From a virus (taxonomy: Duplodnaviria; Caudoviricetes): DNA of 59,936 bases. The translations under genes and the position numbers were made by a program. Each line of letters begins with the position of its first letter. The stretch's first letter is position 1. Where the stretch lies: positions 1 to 59,936 of IMG/VR virus record IMGVR_UViG_3300006735_005664. One strand, written 5' to 3'. Below the pieces are notes generated by a model. That model searched no databases. It was not told the origin of the DNA and saw only the letters and a program-made list of their open reading frames with translations. Shown piece after piece: positions 26,501 through 50,081 of the stretch.

Positions 26501-29500
26501 GTAAAGCAAAAAAAGAAAAAGATCAATTTGCAGATTATATAAGATATACGTTAAAACAATTTAAAAATAAACAGTCTAGTGAAGCATTAGCACTTAAAAA
26601 GTGGAGAAGAAGAGCAGACTCAACAGACAAAAAAACTCAGACTGACATTATAAAAGATGTAAATGTAATAGAAAAAGAATTTGATTATTGGTTTAGAACT
26701 AATAAAAGTAATTTAGGGGTTAGTACAGATGACAGCCCTTCTTATAAAGAACTAATAGAAAATTCTGCTAAAAAAACATTTGCTGATACAGAAGGTTATG
26801 ATTATGATGAGCTTTCCGGTAAGTTTCAACCTGTATATAAAGAAGATACAGAGATCACAGAAAGAGCATCAAATGAAGAGATCTTACAATACTTTAAAGA
26901 AAATAAATTTATAGCTGGTGCTTTAGGTATTTTAAAACTACCAATTAATTTTACTGAATATAAACAGTTTAAAGAAGATAATAAAGTTGAAATAAATAAT
27001 GATTTAACTTTTTATGCAGAACCTTATGCTGGTGGATATAATAATCAAGTTCTTGATTATAAAATTGCTTTACTTGGTAATGATCATATGACCAAAGTAG
27101 AGTCTGGATCTACAGCATCTATTAAAAATGAACCAGCAGATTTAGGACCCCTAACAGATATAGTAGAAGAAATAGAAAATGATCTTCCTAATTTAGCTGA
27201 AGAATTTAATGAAGATGGTCTTGATGTCAATAATATGCTTGGTATTCTAAAAGCTTGGTCAAATAATAAAGCTGGTGCAAGAAATATTGGAGCTGCAGTA
27301 TTACCTAATGTATATTTAGGATGGCTTAAAAATGCTAATATACAACTAAGAGAAGCTAATTCTAAAGGTACACCAATTCCGTTATTAAGATTAAATAAAC
27401 ATGATTATAAAAACTTTGGTATTAATTATGAAATAGATACTAAAACAGGAAAAGAAAATAAGTCAGGATATAGAACTCAATATATCATTTCTGCTCTTAT
27501 AACAGCAATGACAGATAATGCAAAAGAACGTCTTGCTGCAAAGCTTGGTTTAAATAAAGATGCTCTAGCTGTTGTAACTAACATGGTTGCTTTAGGTGTT
27601 AACATTAAAACAGCTATATACTTAGTTAATTATCCTACAATTAAAGACGCTTACTTTAAAGCTATGAATAAAAAATCACCCACTGATCCAGGTATAAGAT
27701 CATTAATAATGGGACAGATTATAAGTTTAGATAAAGGAGAGGTTGCAGAGTTATCTAAAAAGGTTGAAGTTACAGATGGTTTACTAAGAGAACATATATT
27801 AGATTTTAAGAATGCTCAAGAAACTGCAATTATAAATCAAGAACCTTTAGCTAATGAATGGAAAGCAGAAGAACTTGCAGTTCTAAAGCAGTTTATGAAT
27901 ATATGGATGATAAAAGACTCTACTTCAAAGCTTAGTACTATTGCTAATATTCAAAAGGGAATGGGTAGAGATATGCAAACTATTGAGGCTAAGAGTGCTG
28001 ATTTTGAAGCACTAGGTTTAGAGTTATCTGATCAAGATTTTTCAGAAACAAATATTCCATTTGATATAAGACATTTAGTTAAAAATCCAGATACAATTAT
28101 GGGTGTTAACTATTTAATGTATAAACAATTTACAGAAAGAATTTTACCACAAGCTCTTGTAGTAGCCTCTAAACCATTTAAAAAACTACATAATATTATT
28201 AGAGAAAATTTTGGAGCACTACCTCCAGCACTTGCAGAAGCTGCAATTGAAAAATCTAGAAAAGATATTTTAACATATGTTAATGGCTTAGCTTATATGA
28301 ATCTTGTAGCAGGTACAAATAATTTTACTGCAACATCATTAAATAACTCTCTTATATATCAAGAAATGGACGGACCTGTTGATATATATGATGTTGTTAA
28401 TAAAACAAGAGCTTATCTAAAAGAAAAAAATGTTGAAAACAAATTCTTAGAAAAATTTATCTTTAATGATAAAGCATATACTGGAGAAAATAAATCAGCA
28501 TTAAACCGTATTACAGCTAATCAATGGACTCAACTAGCTCCAAGTCAAATTACAGAGCTACAAGACGGACTACTTTCTTTATGGAGTGGTAATGAAGTGG
28601 AAAGAGAAGCAGCAACACATTTAATTAACTACTTATTAGTTAAAGATGGATTCCAATATAAATCAGATTCATTTTTAAACATTGTTCCTCCAGTAATGTT
28701 AAGTACATTCTTGCAAGCATCAGAGGCTGTAAAAGAATTATTTTCACAAGACAATCCTACGGATACAGGTTTTGAAAATGTATTTGGACAAGGTGTAAAC
28801 TTTGAAGTATTAGCAGAATATATGACAGAATATTTTGAATCAGCTTCTACTGAACATTTTGTGCAACCAATTATTGCTCAAGATCAATGGGGTAAACTTA
28901 TACAAATGGCTTATGGTGTACAAGCAGAAGTAGATACCGAAATATACTCTTCAATGATAAATGAAAAAGTTGCTTTAGGAAGACCTAATGCAATATTTGT
29001 AACTCAAGATACTCAAGCTCAAGATGTTATAAGAAATAATAGAGTTAGAAATTTACCAAATGTGTTTACTATACCTACTAGAAAATCTAAAAAAGAACCT
29101 TTTACTGATGATGAGATTTTAGAAAATAAAGATATTATTACTGAAGCTTTAGATAAAATAAGAGATGTAATTGGTGAATCTGGAATGCCTTTAAATCTTG
29201 ATGTAGAAGGATTTGGTGTAGGTAAAGGTTGGGATATGGAAACAGATGCTCCTGAAACTTTTAAATTTTTATCAGATGAACTAAAAAGATTATTTGCATA
29301 TAAACAACCATACTTTAGATCAGAAAAAACTAAATCTAAAGACGGTGTTACAAAAGTTATTTCCGGAATGCAAACTGGTGTAGATCAAATAGGTTTAGAA
29401 GTTGCTAAAGAATTAGGAATAAAAACAGGTGGTACAGCTCCTAGAGATTTTGTAACAGAAGAAGGAAAAGCAAAAGAACTTGCTGAAGAATATGGTGTTA

Positions 29501-37235: not shown

Positions 37236-39095
37236 TTACTTGACTTCACAAGCACCACCAGCACATGCTAATTCTCCTGTTAAGTTGGTTTCATCATCTT
37301 GTTCAACAATCTTAGATAGATCAATGTCCATTAATGATTTAACCATTTCATTATATTTCTTTTTAGTAATATCTTCAAACGGAGCTTGTGTATATGTACC
37401 ACCATCATATGGTAGAACAGCAAGACCATTGTAGTGATCTCTATTTTTCCACATCCAGTCACCAGCTAAGTCCCAGTCTTCATCTTTTAAACTAATTGTA
37501 GCAGAAACATTATGAGTATTAGACCCAGTTCTATGTCCAGTCTTTACCCATTCAGTTGCTACTTTCTTTACTCTCTCCAATAATTGGAAAGCAGATTCAG
37601 TTCTTAAGATAGAGCCTTCCGGGGCTTTTTGGGGTATACTTATAACTGCAGTGTCATGACCCCGGAAAACACAATCTTCTACTAGATCAGGATGATTCTT
37701 AGCAAGATAACCATATATAGCTTCATTCTTTCCTACACGGATTCTTCTTACATAGTAATCATTATGCCAAGCATGAATACCAGAACTTGTACCTAAAGTT
37801 AATGATGTTGTACCAGCAGGTTTTACTGTTGTGCATCTAGCTGCCTTCTTAATTCCAATTAATTTAGCTACTCTTGCATTCTCTTTCTTTACCACAGAAG
37901 CGGCTACCTTCATGTCATAACCAAGTATTCTACCAGATCCTATACCAGTCATAGAAACACCAATCAATGCATCTTTTTCTGTAGTCTCTTGCCATACTGG
38001 TCTGAGATAGTGGAAGTTAGTGTATCCTGCTTGAAGTGTTCCTATAAATGCAGCAGCCTTAACTCTTGACTCTAAGTCTTCTTGAGATTCAATATTACTT
38101 ACATTAACTTCACAAAGGTTACAGAACTGAAAGGGACGTAGAGCAATTTCACAACAAGGGTTTGTACCCCAGTCTTTATCATTGTTAAAGTAAATACCAG
38201 GTTCACCGGCTTTACTCAACTCTACTCTTTTCCATAAATCCATAAAGAAAGACTTAGTTATTTTATGTCTCATTAATACTGCAGAGTTATTAGCTCTACC
38301 ACGTTGTGGATTAAGTTCCCACCAAGCACCAGCCTTACAAGATATCATTTCATCATCAGCAGCACTAAACAAACTAATTAACGCAGCTCTTCTAATCCCA
38401 CCAGCTAATACAGCATCTGCAATGTGACAAATTATATCATGTGTTTCTAATGTAGACAATGCGTCTCCATCTTCTTTATTATCTAGTATACCTGTGATCT
38501 TGAGTATGCATTCTTTTAATGGTTGTGGTCCAGGAGCTTTACCACCTGATGTTACTAGTCTTGCTCCTTTAGGTCTAATATCTGAATAGTCAAATAGTAT
38601 ACGTGACCCTTTACCGTTTAAGTATGACTTCATTAACATCTTAATAGCATCTGCCCATCCTTCAATAGAGTCACTAATTAAATAACGCCTAGTTCTTTTT
38701 GGATATGGTTTGTTTATTAATGGAAGCTTATCCACATGATGTCTTTGTACAGAGTAACCAACACCGGTTCCTCCAAGTAATAAGAACATGGTTTCACTAA
38801 ATGCATCTATATGATCTATAGGAAGGTATGCACAGTTATATATTCTATTAGGACTAATCTCAATTGGTTTACCACCAAACTGCATGGACCTCATAGAAGG
38901 TAATACTTTCTTTTCACTAACATAACTATAAGCAGTTATGATTTCATTCATAAGCTTTGGGTATGATTTAATATGCATTTCCATATTTCTTGTGACTAAC
39001 TCTTTCCAAGTCTCTCTTCTCTTTAATTCTGGATTATACCGTGCATATTTCATATGGACAGTGATATCACTAAGAATTTTGTTATTTAATTCCAT
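37236..39095 (-). CDS. nrdJ: Class II (adenosylcobalamin-dependent) ribonucleotide reductase, monomeric type
   Basis: YNCAY, GGIRRAA, GTNPCCEI, TVKPAGT and C-terminal CAGGAC motifs; 619 aa; no beta subunit nearby. Confidence 0.92.
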   Translation of the reverse strand: MELNNKILSDITVHMKYARYNPELKRRETWKELVTRNMEMHIKSYPKLMNEIITAYSYVSEKKVLPSMRSMQFGGKPIEISPNRIYNCAYLPIDHIDAFSETMFLLLGGTGVGYSVQRHHVDKLPLINKPYPKRTRRYLISDSIEGWADAIKMLMKSYLNGKGSRILFDYSDIRPKGARLVTSGGKAPGPQPLKECILKITGILDNKEDGDALSTLETHDIICHIADAVLAGGIRRAALISLFSAADDEMISCKAGAWWELNPQRGRANNSAVLMRHKITKSFFMDLWKRVELSKAGEPGIYFNNDKDWGTNPCCEIALRPFQFCNLCEVNVSNIESQEDLESRVKAAAFIGTLQAGYTNFHYLRPVWQETTEKDALIGVSMTGIGSGRILGYDMKVAASVVKKENARVAKLIGIKKAARCTTVKPAGTTSLTLGTSSGIHAWHNDYYVRRIRVGKNEAIYGYLAKNHPDLVEDCVFRGHDTAVISIPQKAPEGSILRTESAFQLLERVKKVATEWVKTGHRTGSNTHNVSATISLKDEDWDLAGDWMWKNRDHYNGLAVLPYDGGTYTQAPFEDITKKKYNEMVKSLMDIDLSKIVEQDDETNLTGELACAGGACEVK

Positions 39096-39148
39096 GTTTT
39101 AATATTTAATAGTTAATAAATGTAGCTCCCTGAGATAAACAGGTAATA

Positions 39149-39156
39149 ATAATATA
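39149..39156 (-). promoter_or_regulatory. Putative promoter octamer TATATTAT upstream of nrdJ
   Basis: Minus strand reads TTTTTGAC-TATATTAT-TAT, the same motif as at 5412, 40736 and 48339. Confidence 0.4.
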
Positions 39157-39164
39157 GTCAAAAA

Positions 39165-39338
39165 TTATGAGTTATATTTGACGTAAGTGAAATTTATTTT
39201 AAAAAATAAAAAACCCAATTCAATTTGTAGTGCTGGATGCCATTTTTTATCTTCAAATTGCATTTCACAATTATGAATATAGAGTCCAATTAAAGGACTT
39301 TGTGGAAGTGGTTCAATACCAAATTCATATCTTTTCAT
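39165..39338 (-). CDS. 57-aa hypothetical protein (MKRYEFGIEPLPQSP...)
   Basis: Translated by hand; preceded on the minus strand by TATATTTG (39389-39396). Confidence 0.55.
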   Translation of the reverse strand: MKRYEFGIEPLPQSPLIGLYIHNCEMQFEDKKWHPALQIELGFLFFKINFTYVKYNS

Positions 39339-39360
39339 ATAGTTGATTTTTAATTGATTG

Positions 39361-39396
39361 TTATTTTTTGTATATTGTATTTATAATACAAATATA
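39361..39396. promoter_or_regulatory. Overlapping opposite-strand promoters: + strand TTTTTTG-TATATTGT (39371-39378) and - strand TATATTTG (39389-39396)
   Basis: Located at the strand switch between divergent genes; TAnnTTTG is the Bacteroidota -7 promoter element. Confidence 0.5.
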
Positions 39397-39410
39397 ATAA
39401 AATAAACGTT

Positions 39411-39743
39411 ATGGTAAAAGTAAGTCAAGGGGCTGATCACAAACTAGAAATACTAGCAGAAATTGGAAGGTCTTTAAAACAATTAGAGTTTGGAACTCAA
39501 GGTGCTAAACTAATAAATGATACAGCAACCGATGCACATACTGAAGGTTTTTATGCAATACAAGCAATTAATTCTTGTGTATTAGACTTTACAAGTGGTG
39601 CATCTACTCAAAGTAAAGTTGGAACAGGAATGAAAGGTTTTGATGCAAATCTTTCAATACCAAATGGAGTAATTGTATATGGTGATTTTACAAAAATTAC
39701 TTTAGCTTCTGCTGGAACTTGTATAGCTTATTTTAATAAATAA
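39411..39743 (+). CDS. Small beta-rich protein, probably virion structural
   Basis: 110 aa, Gly/Thr/Ala-rich; first gene of the + strand island. Confidence 0.6.
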   Translation: MVKVSQGADHKLEILAEIGRSLKQLEFGTQGAKLINDTATDAHTEGFYAIQAINSCVLDFTSGASTQSKVGTGMKGFDANLSIPNGVIVYGDFTKITLASAGTCIAYFNK

Positions 39744-39746
39744 ATT

Positions 39747-40712
39747 ATGTCAGGAATAGGAATAGGTATTGGAGTTCACAAAAATACAATAATTAGTGAT
39801 CCTGGAAGAATTGTTGTACCACCAGTAGCTTTAGTTGGATGGTGGGATTTTACAAAAATAGAAACATTATTTGTAAGTAGAGCGGGAACTACTGCTGTAA
39901 CTAGTAATGGTGATGAAATAGGTTGGGTAAAAAATATTGCTCCTGGTGATGGAAATGGAGATAAATTAGGTGCTTTTTTAAGATCTACAACTGATACTTC
40001 TACTCATAGACCTGTTTTTAAAACAGGAGGTGTAAATGGTAACAGTTATGCTGATTTTGGTGTTGACGGTTCTGTTACTAGTCAAATAGGTTTAAGAGCT
40101 GGTTATTTTGATACTGCAGCTTGTAATTTAGATGGTGGAGAAACAGCAACTAAATTTTCTGATTTAAATCTAAATATGGAAGATTGCACAATGTTTGTAG
40201 TAGCTAAACATGATACTGGAAATTTAGGAACTTCATCTAATGATTATCTAGTAAATTTAAAAGGTTATGGAGGTGGTGGTACTTCAGAGTCTGCAGGTTC
40301 TAATTTTAATTTAGAAAATGCTGGTACTGATTATATACGGTGGAGTTATAGTGATGCATCAGGTTTGGAATCCGTAAGTACTTTTGGTTCAGGTCCAGGA
40401 ACTTCTTTACAATGTTTTACATTGATTGGTGGAGAAGGAACAAATGCAATGCAGTTAGAAATTGATGGGACTCAAGAAGATCAAGATGATAGTAAAGAGG
40501 TTACAATAAATTTTTCAAAAGAAGATACCGCTATTGGTGGATCTCCACGTGTATCTGTAGGATCTTATGTTATTCAACCTACAGGTGCTACAAGTAGCAC
40601 ATGGCAAGGAGATGTATATGAAGTTATGATTTACAAAGGTCTTCTTTCAGCAGATCAATTATCAGATGTAGAGACATATATAACAAATAAGTATGGAATA
40701 ACCTTCAGTTAG
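39747..40712 (+). CDS. LamG/concanavalin A-like jelly-roll protein (fibre or receptor-binding candidate)
   Basis: LVGWWDF near the N-terminus, TMFVVAK, and C-terminal WQGDVYEVMIYKGLLSADQLSDVETYITNKYGI typical of LamG-like domains. Confidence 0.7.
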   Translation: MSGIGIGIGVHKNTIISDPGRIVVPPVALVGWWDFTKIETLFVSRAGTTAVTSNGDEIGWVKNIAPGDGNGDKLGAFLRSTTDTSTHRPVFKTGGVNGNSYADFGVDGSVTSQIGLRAGYFDTAACNLDGGETATKFSDLNLNMEDCTMFVVAKHDTGNLGTSSNDYLVNLKGYGGGGTSESAGSNFNLENAGTDYIRWSYSDASGLESVSTFGSGPGTSLQCFTLIGGEGTNAMQLEIDGTQEDQDDSKEVTINFSKEDTAIGGSPRVSVGSYVIQPTGATSSTWQGDVYEVMIYKGLLSADQLSDVETYITNKYGITFS

Positions 40713-40746
40713 TTTTAAAAATCATATTTTTTTATTATATTATTAT
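40710..40746 (+). promoter_or_regulatory. Putative promoter TAGTTTTAAAA...TATATTAT, 3 nt before the ATG
   Basis: TATATTAT at 40736-40743; same architecture as 10971-11008. Confidence 0.45.
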
Positions 40747-41055
40747 ATGGAGCAGTACATCTTTACGGTTATCATTACAGCTTTAACTGTATTATTTAGT
40801 GCAGAAGCGTGGAGATATTATAGATCTAAACTTAATATTAATTATAATAAAGAATCCATGGCTGAAAAAAAAGAAAGAGCATACGTTGATAGTTTAGAAG
40901 GAAGAATCTGTAAATTAGAAGATTTATTAAGTGCAAGTTCAGCAGAAAAAGATGACCTCCGAGATAAAGTAATTGACTTAACAGCTGAAGTTGCTACTCT
41001 ACGTGAAAGAGTTAAATCACTTGAAGCTGAAAATGATAGACTAAAAAGAGTATAA
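40747..41055 (+). CDS. N-terminal membrane anchor plus coiled coil (possible lysis accessory protein)
   Basis: YIFTVIITALTVLFSAEAW followed by a long heptad pattern. Confidence 0.6.
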   Translation: MEQYIFTVIITALTVLFSAEAWRYYRSKLNINYNKESMAEKKERAYVDSLEGRICKLEDLLSASSAEKDDLRDKVIDLTAEVATLRERVKSLEAENDRLKRV

Positions 41056-41057
41056 TT

Positions 41058-41447
41058 ATGATGAACAGAAACATGGTACGTCTTAGAAATAGATCTTATG
41101 ATAGATTAAGAGACAAGCCTTTTATGCAAAGAGGGGGGCCTATGCCAGCACAACCGCCTGTTCAAGCACCAATGCCAAACATGGATAATGCTCAAGTAGC
41201 TTTTAATAAAGTCAGAAAAGATGCCATTAATGGTATATTAAATGAAAATATAATTCTAAAAAAAGAAAATCATTTAATAAAAACTGAAATGAAAAAACAA
41301 CAACTGATCAATTCAGGAAGAAAGAAACCACAAGATTTTGAAAAAAAAAGAACACCTAGACAAATGGGTGGTGTTATCAATGTTAGACAAATTGAAGCAC
41401 AAAAGAAAGTAAGAAGAGGTGGATTTATAACAATGAAAAATAAATAG
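41058..41447 (+). CDS. Basic protein with three di-Gly motifs
   Basis: 129 aa; FMQRGG, RQMGG, VRRGG. Confidence 0.65.
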   Translation: MMNRNMVRLRNRSYDRLRDKPFMQRGGPMPAQPPVQAPMPNMDNAQVAFNKVRKDAINGILNENIILKKENHLIKTEMKKQQLINSGRKKPQDFEKKRTPRQMGGVINVRQIEAQKKVRRGGFITMKNK

Positions 41448-41449
41448 AT

Positions 41450-41860
41450 ATGGCAACTACTACAGCTCAATTAAAATTAGATAGTGCAGCAGGAAGTTTA
41501 TTAACTTCTGTTTTAGCTATTGATGATACAATGACTTTGTATGATAAGGGCACAACTACTGGTATGACAAAAACTACCGGTTTAGCTAGGCAAACATTTG
41601 CAGCTGCAACAGCTACTAGAATTTTATCAGCTTCTGATTATACAACTAATAAATGTCATAAGTTATATATAAAGAATACAGATTCTTCTGGTACACATAC
41701 TGTAGAAATAAAAATAGGTGATTTATCTGGTACTAATGTAAATTTAGGATTTTTAGATCCAGATCAATGGGCTATAGTACCATGGTCAGCAGGAGCTGAT
41801 GTAAATGTAGAATGTACATCTGCATCAACAGTAGTTGAATGGATGTTAATTTTTGAATAA
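41450..41860 (+). CDS. Beta-rich 'MATL-family' paralog 1 (putative capsid decoration/structural)
   Basis: MATTTAQLKL...LYIKN...LDPDQWAIVPW; clearly similar to three neighbours. Confidence 0.7.
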   Translation: MATTTAQLKLDSAAGSLLTSVLAIDDTMTLYDKGTTTGMTKTTGLARQTFAAATATRILSASDYTTNKCHKLYIKNTDSSGTHTVEIKIGDLSGTNVNLGFLDPDQWAIVPWSAGADVNVECTSASTVVEWMLIFE

Positions 41861-41878
41861 TAAATAAAATAAAAAGAT

Positions 41879-42256
41879 ATGGCAACTTTAAACGCGCAAA
41901 CTAAATTAACAGTATCAGACATAGTAGCTGATGATATTGCATTAGATGTAACAATGTCTCCAAGTGTAATAGCTGGAGGTGTTACAAGTAAAAAATTAAC
42001 TTCAGCTAGAGCAACAGGTTCTGCCTTAACAGTTGTAGAAGCAACTTATTATGCAGAAGGAACTGTTATTTATTTAAGAAATATGAGTTCTCATGAAACA
42101 ATTTCTGTAGAGTTAACTGCAGGAACTACTCATTTAACTTTAGGTCCTTTAACTTGGACAGTATTTCCTTGGAAAGCCGCTACAGATATATTAGTTTTTT
42201 CAACAAATGGTACAGAAGCTCCTACATTAGAAGTGGGTATATTTTCAGGATCATAA
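41879..42256 (+). CDS. Beta-rich 'MATL-family' paralog 2
   Basis: MATLNAQTKL...GGVTS...IYLRN...LGPLTWTVFPW...APTLEVG. Confidence 0.7.
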   Translation: MATLNAQTKLTVSDIVADDIALDVTMSPSVIAGGVTSKKLTSARATGSALTVVEATYYAEGTVIYLRNMSSHETISVELTAGTTHLTLGPLTWTVFPWKAATDILVFSTNGTEAPTLEVGIFSGS

Positions 42257-42277
42257 TAATAAATAAAATAAATAGAT

Positions 42278-42646
42278 ATGGCAACATTAACAGGACAATT
42301 AAAATTAGACATTTCAGGAATAACTTCTGATGCAATTTCTATAGATGAAAGTTTTACATTTACAGCTACCTCTGGTGGAGTTACTAGTAGATCTATTGAT
42401 ACAACAGCTACTTCTGGAGAAAAAGTTATAGAAGCTGATGAATATGCAGCAGGTGATATTGTATATTTAAGAAACAGATCTACAGGAACTGATGTTATTA
42501 CAATTAGATTAGGAGCTGATGTAGATGGAGAATTTGAATTAAAGGCTGGACAGTTTGCAATATTTCCTTGGGCAAAAAATGCAGATGTATTGGCATATAC
42601 AAGTGCTAATGCTCCTGTATTAGAAATTGGAACATTTGCAGCATAG
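42278..42646 (+). CDS. Beta-rich 'MATL-family' paralog 3
   Basis: MATLTGQLKL...GGVTS...VYLRN...LKAGQFAIFPW...APVLEIG. Confidence 0.7.
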   Translation: MATLTGQLKLDISGITSDAISIDESFTFTATSGGVTSRSIDTTATSGEKVIEADEYAAGDIVYLRNRSTGTDVITIRLGADVDGEFELKAGQFAIFPWAKNADVLAYTSANAPVLEIGTFAA

Positions 42647-42649
42647 GTC

Positions 42650-42934
42650 ATGGCAAAAGAATTAAATGAAGACACAGGTTTTAAGGTTAGTATAAAAACC
42701 TTAATTGGTATAGGTGTAGCAATGGCTACAGTTATTGGAATGTGGTTTGCGCTTCAAGCAGATATTGAAGAAGCTAAACTACTTCCTGAGCCACCTGCAC
42801 CAGATGTAACAAGGATGGAGTTTGATATGAAGGATAAAAATATACGTCTCACTATTGAGAACACTCAAGATGATGTGACAGAGATCAAAGAAGATCTTAG
42901 ACGTATAGAGGACAAAATTGATGATTTAAAATGA
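42650..42934 (+). CDS. Single-pass membrane protein with C-terminal coiled coil
   Basis: TLIGIGVAMATVIGMWFAL TM segment, then a Pro linker and heptads. Confidence 0.65.
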   Translation: MAKELNEDTGFKVSIKTLIGIGVAMATVIGMWFALQADIEEAKLLPEPPAPDVTRMEFDMKDKNIRLTIENTQDDVTEIKEDLRRIEDKIDDLK

Positions 42935-43254
42935 AAAACCTAATGATAATATTTCTGCTACTTGCAGGCATAGTTAGTGCACAAGTAGAAGTAATTCATT
43001 TTAATGCGGGATGGAATGCATCTAATGATGTTAAGTGGGTAGATGATTTAAATGATTGCGAGATAAAATATATTGACATAGCAAAGAATACTAAAGCTCA
43101 AACTAAATATGAAATAACTGTTGTTCCAACAATATTAATATTGGATGATGGAGAAGAAGATGAAAGATATGAAGCAGATATATCTTTTAGTATGAAGGCT
43201 ACTAAAGAAGAAGTGCAAGAATACATTGATGAATTAGTAATAAATAAATTTTAA
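42931..43254 (+). CDS. Exported thioredoxin-fold protein lacking CXXC
   Basis: Signal peptide MKNLMIIFLLLAGIVSA-Q; VIHFNAGWN in place of FxAxWCxxC; YEITVVPTILI cis-Pro loop. Confidence 0.7.
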   Translation: MKNLMIIFLLLAGIVSAQVEVIHFNAGWNASNDVKWVDDLNDCEIKYIDIAKNTKAQTKYEITVVPTILILDDGEEDERYEADISFSMKATKEEVQEYIDELVINKF

Positions 43255-43255
43255 A

Positions 43256-43351
43256 ATGAAGAAATTTTTGTGTAAATTATTATGTATAGTTAGTTTCTAT
43301 ACAATATGTTTAAAATGGTGTGGTAAAACATGCTGTAAAGATAAGTGTTAA
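43256..43351 (+). CDS. 31-aa Cys-rich peptide (MKKFLCKLLCIVSFYTICLKWCGKTCCKDKC)
   Basis: Translated by hand; 7 Cys; starts 1 nt after the upstream stop and fills the gap. Confidence 0.55.
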   Translation: MKKFLCKLLCIVSFYTICLKWCGKTCCKDKC

Positions 43352-43370
43352 TTAATAAATAATAAAGAAT

Positions 43371-43742
43371 ATGGCAACTTTAACAAGTGTATTACAACTT
43401 TCAACAAGCGGTGTAGCAAAAGATAGAGTAAATGTTACTTTTTCTAAAATAGCAAATATAAAAAATCCTGCTATTCAGACTGGTACAATGAACATATCAA
43501 CTATTGTTCCTATAGCTACTGCACCTTCAGGTTCAGGAGCTAGTGACGGTATGTATATGTATATAAAGAATTTGGATGCTAGTGCGTTTTTGAATGTTAC
43601 CTTTGACTCAAACAATACATTAAAGATAGGACCGGGTGAGGTTAGTTTCTTTTGTGTTCATGATGCAAGGGTTGTAAAAGGTACTGCTAGTACTGGAACT
43701 ATAAAAATAGAGTACGGCACATGGACATTAGATAAGTATTAA
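43371..43742 (+). CDS. Beta-rich 'MATL-family' paralog 4 (more diverged)
   Basis: MATLTSVLQL...MYIKN...IGPGEVSFF...IEYG. Confidence 0.65.
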   Translation: MATLTSVLQLSTSGVAKDRVNVTFSKIANIKNPAIQTGTMNISTIVPIATAPSGSGASDGMYMYIKNLDASAFLNVTFDSNNTLKIGPGEVSFFCVHDARVVKGTASTGTIKIEYGTWTLDKY

Positions 43743-43753
43743 AAATAAGTACT

Positions 43754-46700
43754 ATGTCTAGGTATGTAATGTTGATTGTGTGTATACTATCAAGTATAGC
43801 ACACTCACAGTCTGATTCATGGATTGAAATAGAATTTCAATTTGACGGATATGCTGAGGAAGTGTCATGGAGTTTTTATAATTCTACTGATACTATTTCT
43901 GTTGATACAGGTTTCTATTCAGAGGGACAACCTAATGCATATCAATTCATAGAATTAGATTCTGGAGATTATACATTTCAATTAATGGATTCATGGGGTG
44001 ATGGCTTGTCATATCCTGAAGATGGTTGGTGTTTAGTTTCTAATGCTTGTCAAGACACTTTATTCTTTGTAGAAGGTGATTATGGTATGGGCCTAATTGA
44101 ATCCCTTACAATTGCTCCCTGTGCTCCTCCTGAGCCTGCAGTAATTGATTGTATGGATGAAAACGCAACAAACTATAATCCAGATGCTGATGTAAATGAT
44201 CAGTCTTTATGTGAATATCCACCATGTGAAGGTTGGGGTGAACCTTTTGTAGATCAGGTATGTGATGGTGGTCAAGCACTTCTTTATTGGAATTGGGAAG
44301 CTTCAGATAATCCTAATTGTAATGTAATTCAAATAATTTATAGCGGTGAAAACACTAACTCTTACAACTTTGATGTTGATATAGACAATGGTATATGGGG
44401 TGTTTATACTGGTAATGGTCAGATGCCTCCTAACTGGGAAGAGGAATATTCATTCCAAGCAATGTTTGCTGATAGTACTATGTCAGATACATTATTTCAT
44501 ACACCATACCCATGTACACAAGGATGTACAGATGATAATGCTCCTAATTATAATCCATGGGCTACAGTAGATGACGGATCTTGTGGAGGTCAAGCATGTG
44601 ATGCGGGATACACTTCTATAACAGTAGATATAACTTTAGATAATTGGCCAGGTGAAACAGGATGGTCAATTGTTAGTGGTGGGGTAATAGATGAGCATGC
44701 TGATGGAGATTATGACTATCAAGATATAGGTCAAACATTTTCATATTCTTATTGTGTAATGGAAGATGGATTTGAATTTATTGTTTCAGATACCTTTGGA
44801 GATGGATTAGCCGGTTCTACTTCAGGTGGAGATCTTGATGGAGACATTGTTATAAAAGGATGTGACGGGGATACAATAACAGCTTTATCTTCCGGAACTT
44901 GGTTAAACGCAGCACAAGACACGGTAGGTGTTGGTTTTGGTAGTGTAGCTTATTCAGGATGGCAACAAGCTACTATATGTGAAACAAATGATGTTTCAGG
45001 ATGCACTGATCCAACATATCAAGAATTTAATCCAGAAGCTGTTATAGATGATTACTCATGTGTTACAGAGCATATATACGGTTGTATAAATGAAAATGCT
45101 TTTAACTATGATGAAAACGCAACAGCAATGGATATATATCCTAACTGTAACTATGAACTATGGATAGGAGATGCAGCTGCTGATGGTTGGGGTAACTCAT
45201 TCTTAGGAGTTGTACAAGGTGACAATCAATGGTCATTCACAATGGGTCCAGGAGAATATGAACAAACTTTTCCTATTTGGCTAGAAACAGATAAACCGGT
45301 AAAGATATTTTACTTTGAAGTAGGTGGAGCACAAACTCCTCCAGAAGAGGTGGCTTTTCAAACACTACATAATTCATTTAAGTTAACAAATGATAATGGT
45401 GTAATACTAATGTATGAAGGAGGAAATCCTTTTGCAGGTAACGGTCAAGGTGCGCTTCAAGCTTTTGAACCTCCATTTTTTCAGACATATCAAGCAATGC
45501 CTTTCTGTGGTACACTCTGTATTCCTACAGTAGAAGGTTGTTTAGATGCTACAGCACTAAACTATAACGAAGAGGCAAATACAGATGACGGTAGCTGCAT
45601 AGAGATTATAGAAGGTTGTACTAATGAATTAGCTTTCAACTATGATGAAGAAGCTAACTATGATGACGGGTCATGTGAAGCTGTAGTTGTTGGTTGCATG
45701 GATGAGATAGCATGGAACTACAATGAGGATGCTAATACAGATGGTGGTGACTGTATATATTTAGGATGTACAGACATTGATGCTTGTAACTACAATGCTA
45801 ATGCTAATGCAGATAGTGGGGGTTGTACTTATCCTGATGACTACTATAATTGTAGTGATGTGTGTATAAATGATGCTGACGCAGATGGAGTATGTGATGA
45901 GCTTGAAGTACTAGGATGTACTAGTGTAGCTGCTATTAACTACAATCCAGAAGCAACTGATAATGATGGTTCTTGTATAGGTATAGTTTATGGATGTACA
46001 GACCCAGTAGCGTTTAACTATGATGAAACTGCTAATACAGACAACGGTTCTTGTGTACCTGTAATATTTGGTTGTACAAATTCAGCGGCATTAAATTATA
46101 ATGCTACTGCTAATACTGATAACGGGTCATGTATTACAGTAGTAACAGGTTGCACAGACTCAGCAGCACTTAATTATAATGAAAATGCAAATGTAGAAGA
46201 TGGAAGTTGTATAGATGTAGTATACGGATGTACTGATTCTACTGCACTTAATTACAATGAATTAGCAAATACAGATAACGGTTCTTGTATTACTATTATT
46301 TATGGATGCACAGACCCTGATGCTCTTAACTATGATGAGCTAGCTAACGTTGATGATTTTAGTTGTATTGATCCAGTATATGGTTGTACAGATTCAAATT
46401 CTTATAATTATAATGAATTAGCTAACGTAGATAATGAAAGTTGTATAGACTTTGCATATGGGTGCATTGATTCAGATGCTCTTAACTATGATGCTTCAGC
46501 AAATACTTTAGATCCTGATGTACCATGTTGCTATGTTAGTGGATGTACTGATTCAGCTGCATTAAACTACAATATAAATGCGTGTTATGATGATGGGTCA
46601 TGTGTAGAAATTATAGAAGGGTGTGCTGATCCTAATGCATATAACTATGATCCGCTAGTTAACTTACCAGATAATACTGATTGTCTTTATGATGCTGGTT

Positions 46701-47077
46701 GCTATGGTGGGCCAGGTGAACCTTATTGGTTAAATGATCCTTGTTATGCTTGGGTTATAGATGTGGATAGTTATTGTTGTACATCTATATGGGATGATAC
46801 TTGTCAATCTATGTATAACTATTGTGAAGATGGGTGGCCAGTTAGTATAGATGAACTATCAGGTAGTGATATAGTTGTTTATCCAAATCCTACAGCAAAT
46901 ACTTTTACTATAGAAACAAGATTAAATGTTGATGTAGAACTATATAATATGGTAGGTGAGCTTATAAAAGTAGATAATATAAAAAGAATAGATGTATCAG
47001 ATTACCCTGATGGAATATATAATTTGATTATTACATATGATAAAATAAGAATAACAAAGAAAATAATTAAACTATGA
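43754..47077 (+). CDS. Secreted acidic Cys-repeat protein with type IX secretion (type A) C-terminal sorting domain
   Basis: Signal peptide ending AHS-Q; about 18 GCxDxxAxNYxxxAxxDxGSC units; C-terminal IVVYPNP...VELYNMVG...DGIYNLII...KKIIKL (46871-47074). Confidence 0.85.
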   Translation: MSRYVMLIVCILSSIAHSQSDSWIEIEFQFDGYAEEVSWSFYNSTDTISVDTGFYSEGQPNAYQFIELDSGDYTFQLMDSWGDGLSYPEDGWCLVSNACQDTLFFVEGDYGMGLIESLTIAPCAPPEPAVIDCMDENATNYNPDADVNDQSLCEYPPCEGWGEPFVDQVCDGGQALLYWNWEASDNPNCNVIQIIYSGENTNSYNFDVDIDNGIWGVYTGNGQMPPNWEEEYSFQAMFADSTMSDTLFHTPYPCTQGCTDDNAPNYNPWATVDDGSCGGQACDAGYTSITVDITLDNWPGETGWSIVSGGVIDEHADGDYDYQDIGQTFSYSYCVMEDGFEFIVSDTFGDGLAGSTSGGDLDGDIVIKGCDGDTITALSSGTWLNAAQDTVGVGFGSVAYSGWQQATICETNDVSGCTDPTYQEFNPEAVIDDYSCVTEHIYGCINENAFNYDENATAMDIYPNCNYELWIGDAAADGWGNSFLGVVQGDNQWSFTMGPGEYEQTFPIWLETDKPVKIFYFEVGGAQTPPEEVAFQTLHNSFKLTNDNGVILMYEGGNPFAGNGQGALQAFEPPFFQTYQAMPFCGTLCIPTVEGCLDATALNYNEEANTDDGSCIEIIEGCTNELAFNYDEEANYDDGSCEAVVVGCMDEIAWNYNEDANTDGGDCIYLGCTDIDACNYNANANADSGGCTYPDDYYNCSDVCINDADADGVCDELEVLGCTSVAAINYNPEATDNDGSCIGIVYGCTDPVAFNYDETANTDNGSCVPVIFGCTNSAALNYNATANTDNGSCITVVTGCTDSAALNYNENANVEDGSCIDVVYGCTDSTALNYNELANTDNGSCITIIYGCTDPDALNYDELANVDDFSCIDPVYGCTDSNSYNYNELANVDNESCIDFAYGCIDSDALNYDASANTLDPDVPCCYVSGCTDSAALNYNINACYDDGSCVEIIEGCADPNAYNYDPLVNLPDNTDCLYDAGCYGGPGEPYWLNDPCYAWVIDVDSYCCTSIWDDTCQSMYNYCEDGWPVSIDELSGSDIVVYPNPTANTFTIETRLNVDVELYNMVGELIKVDNIKRIDVSDYPDGIYNLIITYDKIRITKKIIKL
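45520..46685 (+). repeat. Intragenic array of about 14 Cys-containing repeats, core period 26 aa (78 bp)
   Basis: For example YGCTDPVAFNYDETANTDNGSC, FGCTNSAALNYNATANTDNGSC, TGCTDSAALNYNENANVEDGSC; diverged at the DNA level. Confidence 0.9.
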
Positions 47078-47265
47078 AATACTTAGCAGCAATATGGGTT
47101 CTATTAATTGTAGGTTGTGGATTATTTAATCCTGCAAAGTATAATCCTAATCCAAGACCAGTGGTAGAAGAGTGTTGTCCTAAAGATTCAATAAGAGTTG
47201 ATACAATAAGATTAACAAACGGAGTAGATCATATTATAATGTTAGATACAGTTAAAGTAAAATGA
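47074..47265 (+). CDS. Small putative lipoprotein
   Basis: MKYLAAIWVLLIVG-C lipobox-like signal; 4-nt overlaps with both neighbours. Confidence 0.65.
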   Translation: MKYLAAIWVLLIVGCGLFNPAKYNPNPRPVVEECCPKDSIRVDTIRLTNGVDHIIMLDTVKVK

Positions 47266-48320
47266 GAATAATTTTATCCATATTATTACTTTTATCATTT
47301 ACGATAAATGCACAAGAAGAAAATAAATTTAAGAAAGAACTTAAAAAGACTTTTAAGTTTTCTACATTCTATGCTGCAGTAAACGGTGGAACTTCTATTT
47401 CAGATCAGAATGTATATTCTGTATTAGACCAACTTCAAACCGATGTAATAGAAACCCCATTTGATTATGCCTTAACTCTAGGTGTAAGAAAGATACAGAG
47501 ATTTGGATACGAGAACAAGGCTAACACATTCAAGGATGGTACAGAAGCTTCATACTCTGATGCCGCTACCATTGGACGAACTAAAGGATTTGAGTTTTTA
47601 TTTGAGATGGATTACCAAAGAAAGTTTGGTGATACATACATAGACCAAAATCATTTTTTACGATACTTAGCAGACAAATGGGTTGTTAAAGTAGAGTACT
47701 TACAAGACGGTTTTGCTGATGTAGAGTATATGGAGGCATCACAAAGATACAGACATAAACTAGGAAAGAGAATTTCTCTTACTGCTGGAGCTGTACAACG
47801 AATATCTGAACCTTATGGTTTTGATCCATTAGCTGACTGGGTGTTATCCAATGGGAATATACACTATACAAACCTTGCTTTAGAGGAAGGGTACACAATT
47901 GGTTTTGACCCAACAGGAATAAGCTACTTTAACCCTAGTGGATCGGTAGTTGCTACAAGTAGTGAAGTTTGGGAAGAAGTGGTGATCCCACAAGTTCTTG
48001 ATGATTATGTTAAAGCAAGTAAAGATGCATTACCTGTACAGTGGTGTCACTCATTAGTAATTGGTTTTGATTATTACTACTACACTAAAAGTATCTGGTT
48101 ACACTCATGGGGTAATGTACTTCCTGTTCATCTTAATACAGGAGGAGACTACTCATATCACAACTTTAATGGTGGTAATTGGATAGATTATTCTGCTGGT
48201 TTAATTTTTGGATATAAGATTAATAAGAATCTTGGTCTTTTTATTGAAGGTAAATATAACAAGTATTGGAACAGGGACTGGCATGATTTCAAGTTTGGAA
48301 TAAATTATATTATTCTTTAG
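47262..48320 (+). CDS. Putative outer-membrane beta-barrel protein
   Basis: Signal peptide ending INA-Q; aromatic-rich amphipathic strands; terminal strand HDFKFGINYIIL. Confidence 0.7.
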   Translation: MRIILSILLLLSFTINAQEENKFKKELKKTFKFSTFYAAVNGGTSISDQNVYSVLDQLQTDVIETPFDYALTLGVRKIQRFGYENKANTFKDGTEASYSDAATIGRTKGFEFLFEMDYQRKFGDTYIDQNHFLRYLADKWVVKVEYLQDGFADVEYMEASQRYRHKLGKRISLTAGAVQRISEPYGFDPLADWVLSNGNIHYTNLALEEGYTIGFDPTGISYFNPSGSVVATSSEVWEEVVIPQVLDDYVKASKDALPVQWCHSLVIGFDYYYYTKSIWLHSWGNVLPVHLNTGGDYSYHNFNGGNWIDYSAGLIFGYKINKNLGLFIEGKYNKYWNRDWHDFKFGINYIIL

Positions 48321-48330
48321 ATTTTCCCTA

Positions 48331-48350
48331 TTTTTTTGTATATTATAGTA
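48331..48350 (+). promoter_or_regulatory. Putative late-type promoter TTTTTTTG-TATATTAT
   Basis: TATATTAT at 48339-48346, ahead of the small-gene cluster. Confidence 0.5.
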
Positions 48351-48369
48351 TAACCAAAACCGTAAAATT

Positions 48370-48519
48370 ATGAACTGGATTAACAGTTGGCGTGAAGGTA
48401 ACAAAAAGAATATTGTTGACTTCACATTTAGATTTGGGGTAATAACCCTATTTGAATTAAATTGGAACCCGAAGAAAAGCTTTAGGTTAATAGTATTAAA
48501 TTTTGGATTTGAGCTATGA
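48370..48519 (+). CDS. 49-aa hypothetical protein (MNWINSWREGNKKN...LNFGFEL)
   Basis: Translated by hand; follows the promoter motif; its stop overlaps the next ATG (ATGA). Confidence 0.6.
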   Translation: MNWINSWREGNKKNIVDFTFRFGVITLFELNWNPKKSFRLIVLNFGFEL

Positions 48520-48845
48520 TGAAAGGTCTTAAAAATATTAGTATTACTGATACTAGAACACAAATGACTTTTTGTGCAAGCTGTAAAACATGCCCAGCAA
48601 TAGACATTTCCAAAGACTCAGATAAAGTAATAGTGGGTGGTAAAGACGAAGGTTACACCCACTTCACTAAAGATCAGTTTGCTTTATTTGTAAAAACAGT
48701 TAAAGAAGGCATGTATGATAAATATTTCACTAAAGACTGTGTCTGTGGAACTACATCTAATGAAGATGGTACTTGTGATGGAACTCACAAAAATGTTTGT
48801 GATGAACCTTCAGATCTGAATGAAGATGTACCATTTGGAGATTAA
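48516..48845 (+). CDS. Small Cys-rich protein: DUF397-like N-terminal region plus CDGSH-type iron-sulfur motif
   Basis: CASCKTCP...FTKDQFALFVKTVKEG; CVCGTTSNEDGTCDGTH. Confidence 0.65.
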   Translation: MMKGLKNISITDTRTQMTFCASCKTCPAIDISKDSDKVIVGGKDEGYTHFTKDQFALFVKTVKEGMYDKYFTKDCVCGTTSNEDGTCDGTHKNVCDEPSDLNEDVPFGD

Positions 48846-48856
48846 ATATTAATGAT

Positions 48857-49144
48857 ATGCCAGGTAAACTAGGAAGAAAAATAGCACAACTTTTTAAAAA
48901 AGGTGCAAAAAAAACAAAAGATACTCTTAAAGAAATTAAGTACACTGTTAGAGATAAAGGTACTGTTAGAGACATGAGATGGAAAGAAAGAAATCCAGAA
49001 GGATATCATTATAACATGATAAGAAAGAATAAACCTTATAGTGGTACAGGATCTAATCAATTTGGAGGAGAACAAGTAACTAATCATAAAGGTATGAAAG
49101 TTCCAGGTATGTATAAAGATGGTGGTTCAAAATATAAAAAATGA
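48857..49144 (+). CDS. Small Lys-rich protein, MPGK family (VPGM / GGSKYKK end)
   Basis: MPGKLGRK...QFGG...KVPGMYKDGGSKYKK. Confidence 0.75.
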   Translation: MPGKLGRKIAQLFKKGAKKTKDTLKEIKYTVRDKGTVRDMRWKERNPEGYHYNMIRKNKPYSGTGSNQFGGEQVTNHKGMKVPGMYKDGGSKYKK

Positions 49145-49830
49145 GAAAAAGAGTATTAGGTGGACCGCGAAGAGTTAAGAAAAAACTAGTTATAAAAAAA
49201 AACGGTGGTAAAGTAGAACCTACTGGATCAACCGCTGATAAACAGTTAAAAGATTTAAAAGAACGTTATATGAAAAAAAATAAAAAAATGTCTTATAAAA
49301 AAGGAGGTCCAAAATATAAAAAAGGTGGTTCTAAACCAGATTATTTAGATTTTGACAAAGATGGTAATACAACTGAACCTATGAAGAGTACATATTATGG
49401 GGGTGGATCTATTTATACTAAAAAAGGTAAAAAGATTCCTGGAATGCAAATGGGAGGTGTACCAAGACCACAACAAATGCCACCTTCCGAAAAAGATATG
49501 ATAGCTATGCGTCAAAAACCTCAACCTGTAAGTCCTTCTGAGCCTGACTTTCCTCCTATGGAAGAAAATCAGCCTGATGCTAGAGGAAATTTAATTCAAA
49601 CACCCGGAATGAATAGATCTATGTTAACACAAGAGATGATAGATGCAGGATATACAGCAGATGAAAAAGGTTTTATTGATGGACCTAAAAATCAACCAGA
49701 AATGGCAGTTAGTGGAAATGCAAGAACGAGACATATGGACAGCTTGGGTAATAGATTATTAAAACAAAAAGGTGGAGCAGTATATACTAAAAAAGGAATG
49801 AGAGTTCCTGGAATGAGAAAAGGAAGATAA
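49141..49830 (+). CDS. Basic low-complexity protein with multiple di-Gly motifs and an EF-hand-like loop
   Basis: KNGG, YKKGG x2, YYGGG, MQMGG, KQKGG; DFDKDGNTTE; two YTKKGx(K/R)(I/V)PGM units. Confidence 0.75.
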   Translation: MRKRVLGGPRRVKKKLVIKKNGGKVEPTGSTADKQLKDLKERYMKKNKKMSYKKGGPKYKKGGSKPDYLDFDKDGNTTEPMKSTYYGGGSIYTKKGKKIPGMQMGGVPRPQQMPPSEKDMIAMRQKPQPVSPSEPDFPPMEENQPDARGNLIQTPGMNRSMLTQEMIDAGYTADEKGFIDGPKNQPEMAVSGNARTRHMDSLGNRLLKQKGGAVYTKKGMRVPGMRKGR

Positions 49831-49831
49831 A

Positions 49832-50062
49832 ATGCCTATTTTTAATAAATTAAGGAAAAAAAGAATAGAGAATAAGATTAATAAACTTAACTCTAGAACA
49901 GAAGAGCTTCAGGGTATACCAGAAGGCTACTTTCAACAACCTGCATGGGATGAAGGTGGTTCAGAAGTTGTAAAAAACACAAAAAAGGTAATAGACTTGA
50001 AAGATAGATTAAAAAAGTTTAAAAAATATGGTGGTTGTGTAGGACCTAATGGAGTATTATAA
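49832..50062 (+). CDS. Small basic protein ending KYGG-CVGPNGVL
   Basis: Shared C-terminal tag; starts MPIF. Confidence 0.75.
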   Translation: MPIFNKLRKKRIENKINKLNSRTEELQGIPEGYFQQPAWDEGGSEVVKNTKKVIDLKDRLKKFKKYGGCVGPNGVL

Positions 50063-50081
50063 ATATTAAAAAAGTAAAATT

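Follow-up and report, generated by a model that had tools for sequence, protein, structure and literature searches.

Type A cargo of type IX secretion systems (T9SS), with gingipains of the RgpB type as the cellular example, are described as proteins with a signal peptide, a passenger and an immunoglobulin (Ig)-like C-terminal sorting domain (CTD) of the TIGR04183/PF18962 families (PMC11285876; Gorasia 2022, PMC9143113). Type B cargo are described as working with a PorP/SprF-like barrel that anchors or shuttles the cargo (Gorasia 2022, PMC9143113; Commun Biol 2025, PMC12618676). Phages encoding T9SS cargo have been published before. De Jonge et al. (2019, Viruses, PMC6949934) reported open reading frames (ORFs) with T9SS sorting domains beside crAss-BACON ORFs in the gut phages of their 'cluster 2', and Bellas et al. 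(2020, Nat Commun, PMC7468147) reported Cryophage, from glacier cryoconite, whose ORFs with T9SS type A sorting domains encode an endoglucanase, a GH39 protein and a PA14 protein; they proposed hijack of the host system. The Q-rule, by which signal peptide cleavage exposes a Gln, is described as Bacteroidetes-specific (Bochtler 2018, PMC5837995), and Q-rule proteins have been reported in phages of P. gingivalis (Matrishin 2023, PMC10367356). We analysed the whole of IMG/VR virus record IMGVR_UViG_3300006735_005664, a linear record of 59,936 nucleotides (hereafter the window), in which a preliminary description made without database searches had proposed that the ORF at 43754-47077 on the + strand encodes a substrate of the host T9SS. 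From its sequence and that of its relatives we consider it quite probable that this ORF is a true phage gene whose product is type A cargo of the host T9SS, export route included. The preliminary description missed both the published phage T9SS cargo and the co-inheritance of this gene with three envelope genes.

The window shares with Cryophage a phage ORF with a T9SS type A sorting domain, a trait described there as highly variable among Cryophage variants. It differs in encoding one non-enzymatic, hyper-acidic Cys-repeat candidate cargo per genome, in coming from marine phages that appear distantly crAss-like and in the three linked envelope genes; where Bellas et al. termed their case 'a unique occurrence', the present family has more than 2400 members. 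The likeness to 'cluster 2' lies in Bacteroidota phages with repeat-rich proteins of the carbohydrate-binding type and a T9SS sorting domain on a phage ORF. Those are gut phages in which BACON repeats adjoin head genes, and the passages on these ORFs describe no Cys-loop repeats or linked module genes. A literature search, supplements aside, found no description of the marine cargo family or of the four-gene module.

The cargo ORF was exactly as first described and encodes 1107 amino acids (aa). Database gene callers place the start 5 residues downstream, giving 1102 aa; the first ATG is backed by orthologue L001, which has Ile at the position of the second Met of the window. A Sec/signal peptidase I signal peptide is predicted at 43754..43810 (residues 1-18/19), with charge at its start, then a hydrophobic core that begins at residue 6 (mean Kyte-Doolittle value 2.81) and A-H-S followed by Gln19, which predicted cleavage would expose as the Q-rule and the preliminary description both have it. 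A hydrophobic core followed by a small residue and Gln was present in 33 of 35 distinct orthologue N-termini, and the two misses look 5'-truncated; the background for such a dipeptide in a 20-residue window is 20%. At the extreme C-terminus (residues 1042-1106 of 1107), the candidate type A CTD (46877..47077, residues 1042-1107 plus the stop codon) matched Pfam PF18962 (Por_Secre_tail) at 40.3 bits against a cutoff of 27, over residues 1042-1105 and positions 1-74 of the 75 in the profile, and NCBIfam TIGR04183 at 39.2 bits against a cutoff of 23. These hidden Markov model (HMM) matches confirm the CTD called canonical from the sequence. PF18962 was the sole Pfam domain found in the cargo, and a six-frame scan of the whole record found a single CTD copy (47 bits). 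The protein contains 62 Cys and is acidic, as had been noted, with 190 D+E against 14 K+R, 9 of the latter in the CTD. Judged by sequence, it has every feature of T9SS type A cargo; it differs from cellular type A cargo in being virus-encoded and in having a passenger of no recognised enzyme or known adhesin family.

The N-terminal half of the passenger (43811..45535, + strand) is predicted to form four beta-sandwich regions (approximately residues 20-128, 157-255, 280-410 and 466-590) separated by four single Cys-loop units. The AlphaFold2 model of residues 1-599, built from a 23-sequence alignment, was all-beta with a mean predicted local distance difference test (pLDDT) of 73.8 and a predicted TM-score (pTM) of 0.39, in agreement with the beta-sandwich-like domains first proposed. 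Foldseek searches of PDB and BFVD returned only tandem beta-sandwich arrays with low TM-scores; the PDB matches were tandem FnIII/Ig arrays, the SiiE and ice-binding adhesins and the RPTP-mu ectodomain. The specific matches in BFVD were deposited members of the same family, one from Virus NIOZ-UU157 and another auto-named 'Secretion system C-terminal sorting domain-containing protein [uncultured virus]'. Neither Pfam nor Foldseek against PDB and BFVD detected any enzyme family or fold in the passenger.

Fourteen further 26-residue Cys-loop repeats, detected by regular expression and profile, occupy 45536..46693 and are interrupted at residues ~693-720. A regular expression found 16 units in the whole protein and 2 more hold an internal Cys (Cys 672 and Cys 931), making 18 with a 26-residue period, the number first estimated. 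Both Cys of the consensus, xGCTDxxAxNYNExANxDDGSC, are invariant, and a proxy for repeat count ranged from 7 to 22 among cargo orthologues. Just upstream of the CTD lies a Cys-rich module (46682..46876) that is the best-conserved stretch of the C-terminal 150-residue alignment of 30 orthologues, with seven invariant Cys (C20, C26, C40, C51, C52, C60 and C67, numbered within those 150 residues). Among solved structures, the profile of the 18 units matched at a single place, namely residues 332-354 of MPEG1/perforin-2 (PDB 6u23, 6sb1, 6sb3 and 8a1d; E 6.1e-7), with three further MPEG1 sequences at 0.008-0.027. Both Cys of the phage repeat fall within the match, as do its N-x-N, A-N and D-D-G-S positions. 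MPEG1 is a metazoan pore-forming protein with a single Cys loop, whereas the phage cargo has 18 tandem copies and no MACPF domain; the likeness may reflect either homology or convergence.

The phage origin of the gene was supported by its surroundings. The window (CheckV completeness 49%) encodes ribonucleotide reductase (phrog_367, 2.1e-131), DNA polymerase (phrog_1252, 4.4e-144) and an exonuclease, and a CheckV-complete relative of 121,758 bp, G001, is collinear with all of it (identity 96% for ribonucleotide reductase, 95% for DNA polymerase and 89% for the cargo). In the other half of G001, PHROG searches identified a portal at 1.4e-99, a large terminase at 8.9e-71, a major head protein at 8.4e-26 and a protein resembling tail fibres. 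The Terminase_6N and Terminase_6C profiles had matched nothing in G001 or G003 before PHROG found the G001 terminase. This terminase matched 127 GenBank phage records, all at less than 60% identity and at 24-27% among the matches listed, from crAss-like phages of Bacteroides, Flavobacterium, Cellulophaga or Azobacteroides or from uncultured ones. Because of the collinear relative, its portal, terminase and head genes and the terminase matches, the window appears to represent roughly one half of a tailed phage of ~120 kb that is a distant relation of the crAss-like phages.

Coverage across the gene boundaries had been proposed as a check on the assembly. Independently assembled contigs from marine metagenome runs of three studies (X1, X2 and X3, one of which may be the source sample) bridged both. 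At the 5' junction X2 covered 42650-46755 with 2 differences, X1 42650-44320 with 0 and X3 43373-44134 with 0, and at the 3' junction X2 covered 46727-47317, X1 46844-47322 and X3 46906-47234; over the two junctions together the contigs showed 0-2 differences. Since contigs from three runs bridge both junctions, chimeric assembly at the cargo boundaries is excluded.

The arrangement of the cargo with its neighbours was assessed by tblastn of the window ORFs against the 42 viral loci with cargo relatives (32-89% identity) that were found by a scan of viral contigs. Three neighbouring genes, all on the + strand, accompanied the cargo: the 94-aa and 107-aa ORFs were each found in 36 of the 42 loci and the 352-aa ORF in 40. 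The genes occurred in three cyclic orders (transmembrane (TM)-thioredoxin-like-cargo-barrel, cargo-barrel-TM-thioredoxin-like and barrel-TM-thioredoxin-like-cargo) and stayed grouped in each. In 36-40 of the 42 loci, then, the cargo travels together with three envelope genes even though the gene order is permuted, a finding that is new here. A sigma-70 scan of 39000-52300 with a promoter model that is wrong for Bacteroidota was at chance, with 63 promoters against 67.1 expected and 3 terminators against 4.0.

The 94-aa protein (42650..42934) is a predicted single-pass membrane protein with a short N-terminus, one TM segment (Kyte-Doolittle value 2.14 from residue 19), a Pro-rich linker and a C-terminal coiled coil. 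Its 31 distinct orthologues are highly conserved (omega 0-0.23; omega values here and below are Nei-Gojobori estimates), and it matched no Pfam or NCBIfam family even at lenient thresholds. The 107-aa protein (42931..43254) has a signal peptide followed by Gln in 34 of 34 distinct N-termini and likely adopts a thioredoxin-like fold, its match to PF00085 falling below the cutoff for Thioredoxin membership (22.0 against 23.5 bits) and that to TIGR01068 at E 1.7e-4 and 21.7 bits against 96.8. It is predicted to be redox-inactive because W-N-x-x-N replaces the catalytic CxxC; the cis-Pro loop VVPT is retained, and any CxxC was found in 1 of 35 orthologues, within the signal peptide region. The 352-aa protein (47262..48320) is a predicted outer-membrane beta-barrel, an assignment of fold class only, with a signal peptide and Gln in 30 of 30 distinct N-termini. 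Its AlphaFold2 model (mean pLDDT 66.4) has about 12 long strands, and Foldseek against PDB gave 160 matches at E<=0.001. All 50 listed were outer-membrane barrels (TM-scores 0.2-0.6), including NanC (E 3.2e-7, TMt 0.60), and no T9SS barrel was among these 50. The barrel has 3603 database homologues, no Pfam domain and viral nearest Atlas clusters. It is the second most conserved member of the module after the TM protein (omega 0.065-0.098). For the barrel, its cellular homologue and the lipoprotein described below, searches of Pfam and NCBIfam with lenient thresholds yielded no credible family.

Other genes are less constant members of the neighbourhood. A 123-aa ORF between the thioredoxin-like gene and the cargo (43371..43742, +) had a homologue in 10 of 42 loci and no Pfam or PHROG match. 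It is a paralogue of the 122-aa ORF at 42278-42646 (+); both start MATLT and they flank the TM and thioredoxin-like genes. A 63-aa predicted lipoprotein (47074..47265, +; lipobox L-I-V-G-C, containing Pro and Cys) is a variable accessory, found between cargo and barrel in seven loci and downstream of the barrel in L007. A 131-aa holin-like protein with three TM segments (51135..51530, +), found in 22 of 42 loci, is loosely associated with the module.

These neighbours bear on the possibility that the module is a lysis accessory that disrupts the envelope, with a spanin-like TM protein and lipoprotein, a barrel and a cargo whose effect late in infection would be to weaken the outer membrane or to jam the T9SS. 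The holin-like gene lies 2.8 kb downstream of the module in the window and ~500 bp downstream in L019, L021 and L032-L035, a distant lineage of ~60 kb; the 94-aa protein is i-spanin-like in topology and the 63-aa lipoprotein o-spanin-like in size and composition. A second ORF whose product has a TM segment at its N-terminus and a coiled coil at its C-terminus (40747-41055, +, 102 aa), similar in layout to the 94-aa protein, matched the 'hol-like' phrog_2658 at E 3.7e-7. However, the match of the holin-like protein to PF11351 (GTA_holin_3TM) fell under the Pfam cutoff (24.3 against 24.8 bits), the lipoprotein was present in only 8 of 42 loci and no endolysin was found adjoining the module. We know of no lysis precedent for a 1107-aa adhesin-like passenger and consider a lysis function unlikely.

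The cargo family is large. The protein database held 2431 cargo homologues at E<=0.001 among 7994 candidates scored; PF18962 was present in all 120 homologues listed, some of which also had a MAM domain. The pattern is beyond chance, since 42 viral loci and 2431 database proteins share this architecture. Among GenBank phages only MH319765 matched the cargo, weakly and over 12% of the query. Each genome copy held a single CTD gene in 5 of 5 related virus records. Record G002 (245,646 bp) holds two module copies (L004 and L006) 118,740 bp apart, with cargo 85% and 79% identical to that of the window, and is probably two related ~120-kb genomes joined during assembly. In comparisons with eight orthologues, omega was 0.09-0.30 for the whole cargo gene; for the CTD it was 0.09-0.27 in seven of them, the eighth being 0.58 against the highly diverged L005, and N-terminal domain A varied most (up to 0.49). 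The CTD was kept in 29 of 30 aligned orthologues. These estimates indicate that purifying selection acts on the cargo gene and its CTD.

This record of synteny and selection argues against recent capture of a host gene, a moron without phage-specific function, and against host DNA mis-joined to the phage. Four cellular loci encode large secreted proteins with Cys repeats similar to those of the cargo, and the GC content of the gene is a little above that of its surroundings (0.377 at 44-46 kb against about 0.30-0.33), both in favour of capture. Against this, both junctions were bridged in three runs, the cargo is syntenic in the 42 viral loci across at least two phage lineages, and it is single-copy in CheckV-complete relatives and under purifying selection. 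In the Atlas, the clusters closest to the passenger are viral, and the cellular proteins share the repeats only and lack the module partners. A barrel profile search of 401 Flavobacteriales genomes matched only 2, one of them a phage-like contig. We therefore regard recent capture or mis-joining as extremely unlikely.

The preliminary description had also raised the reuse, as a virion fibre, of a gene captured from the host, a reading disfavoured by the size of the family, the viral Atlas clusters and the restriction of cellular likeness to the repeats. More generally, the cargo could be a tail fibre or decoration protein in which the CTD is merely an Ig-like structural or binding domain. The variation in repeat number and the fast N-terminal domain resemble those of receptor-binding proteins, the cargo is co-directional with giant virion-type ORFs, and its generic Foldseek matches include phage tail proteins at low TM-score (T5 tail tip 7zhj_b and minor tail proteins). 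In the 'cluster 2' phages, BACON-repeat ORFs near T9SS-domain ORFs were weighed as tail fibres (de Jonge 2019, PMC6949934). Yet the conserved cleavable signal peptide with its Q-rule Gln and the 62 regularly paired Cys point to export and oxidative folding; together with the selected CTD they fit extracytoplasmic folding and not cytoplasmic virion assembly. The constant neighbours are envelope proteins and not tail genes, the capsid and packaging genes of G001 lie at 15-31 kb and its cargo at 71-74 kb, and the PHROG search with the cargo gave only a match at E 0.13 and no structural family. A virion role is accordingly quite improbable in our assessment.

The preliminary description had also taken this gene to support a Bacteroidota host. 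All three secreted module proteins (cargo, barrel and thioredoxin-like) obey the Bacteroidota Q-rule by prediction, and because of this, the terminase relatives and the cellular matches in Flavobacteriales metagenome-assembled genomes (MAGs), the host is very probably a member of the Bacteroidota and, within them, probably of the Flavobacteriales. The cellular loci similar to the cargo were four only, all in Flavobacteriales MAGs, at 30-44% identity confined to the Cys repeats, in secreted proteins of 1684-3630 aa; the repeat fills these proteins, which reach 3630 aa with 241 Cys at L044. PorP/SprF was encoded in 5 of 5 Flavobacteriales MAGs holding Cys-repeat proteins or the module. A whole module was found at L058 (G198:C32, a 43,296-bp contig in a Flavobacteriales MAG bin), with identities of 47% for the cargo, 62% for the barrel, 76% for the TM protein and 53% for the thioredoxin-like protein. 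This appears to be phage-like sequence of another lineage binned with the MAG, with almost nothing else in common with G001, and is a weak link to a host. At L060:9379-10593 (G065:C35) a 404-aa secreted protein, chromosomal in a Flavobacteriales MAG, is 29% identical to the phage barrel; it lies among housekeeping genes, with no family name and no adjacent T9SS cargo.

If the gene encodes T9SS cargo as we propose, the protein would cross the inner membrane of the infected Flavobacteriales cell by Sec, and its cysteine pairs would oxidise in the periplasm to give 18 one-disulfide loops. The CTD would then carry it through the T9SS translocon and be removed, as with other type A cargo, leaving a 1020-residue passenger fixed to the cell surface or released. 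The outcome would be a dense, polyanionic, adhesin-like coat, probably Ca2+-binding, and the cargo would act within a module with the predicted outer-membrane barrel, the single-pass membrane protein and the redox-inactive thioredoxin-fold periplasmic protein. Phage-encoded proteins of the host outer membrane, such as the Lom and Bor types of phage lambda, are small and come from temperate phages, and the likeness of the module to them lies in predicted outer-membrane insertion. Receptor masking, aggregation, grazing avoidance and occupation of the T9SS had been put forward as roles, and nothing here separates them. Our tentative preference is that the coat remodels the surface of the infected cell and thereby blocks phage adsorption to infected cells or debris, or alters adhesion.

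A more speculative and, in our view, doubtful extension is that the four genes form a self-contained phage surface-display system. The redox-dead thioredoxin-fold protein might retain the 62-Cys passenger in the periplasm, export would be by the host T9SS, and the phage barrel might capture the passenger by the invariant pre-CTD Cys module, as PorP/SprF does for type B cargo. The polyanionic coat would then serve as a shield against superinfection and debris across thousands of marine Flavobacteriales phage variants. The likeness to type B pairs is in layout only, a T9SS cargo gene followed by an outer-membrane barrel gene, and the CTD here is type A by HMM. A complex prediction for barrel residues 19-352 with the C-terminal 150 residues of the cargo scored 0.00 and was informative neither way.

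Several points weigh against reading the gene as T9SS cargo and the barrel as its partner. The signal peptide calls come from our own heuristic (a hydrophobic core followed by a small residue and Gln), the cargo and barrel models are only moderate (pLDDT 66-74) with low Foldseek TM-scores, and the CTD, as an Ig-like sandwich, could in principle have another role. Orthologue L041 has a truncated CTD. RNA run X24 gave short contigs only, with 2-18 differences, a depth of 2-4, none over the barrel gene and no silent-stretch control. Secretion, CTD cleavage, surface attachment and the timing of expression are what we infer from the gene and its relatives, and the evidence for the host is indirect. 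The barrel is not a detectable PorP/SprF relative, as no PF11751 match was found in the window at E<=10 and hhalign against PorP/SprF from five MAGs gave a probability of 6%; for this reason its partner role is conjectural.

Flavobacteriales, major degraders of algal polysaccharides in the ocean, depend on the T9SS for their surface proteins, for gliding and for many of their enzymes. More than 2400 cargo and more than 3600 barrel variants in public data indicate a widespread phage lineage. If phages of this lineage do load their own cargo on the T9SS, viral rewriting of host surfaces during blooms would be common, and adsorption, aggregation and particle attachment could change. The Q-rule and the CTD together offer a simple signature by which uncultured phages can be assigned from sequence to Bacteroidota hosts, and the conserved module is a concrete, clonable four-gene system.

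Elsewhere in the window, the block at 2-36843 on the + strand consists of seven very large co-directional ORFs. These are 28-43% identical between the window and G001, as compared to 95-96% for ribonucleotide reductase and DNA polymerase, and because their identity is far below that of the replication genes this block evolves or is exchanged much faster. A 5515-aa ORF of the block, at 14518-31065, matched PHROG with neither half, and PHROG and Pfam searches of the giant ORFs gave no match apart from two domains in the 1626-aa ORF at 506-5386 (+). In this ORF a LysM domain (E 5e-11) precedes a YkuD L,D-transpeptidase domain (E 2.8e-9), a combination of peptidoglycan-acting domains that is unusual within a giant phage protein. 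A tRNA-Arg gene (anticodon TCT) at 52120-52194 on the - strand lies at the switch from the + strand block to the - strand replication genes.

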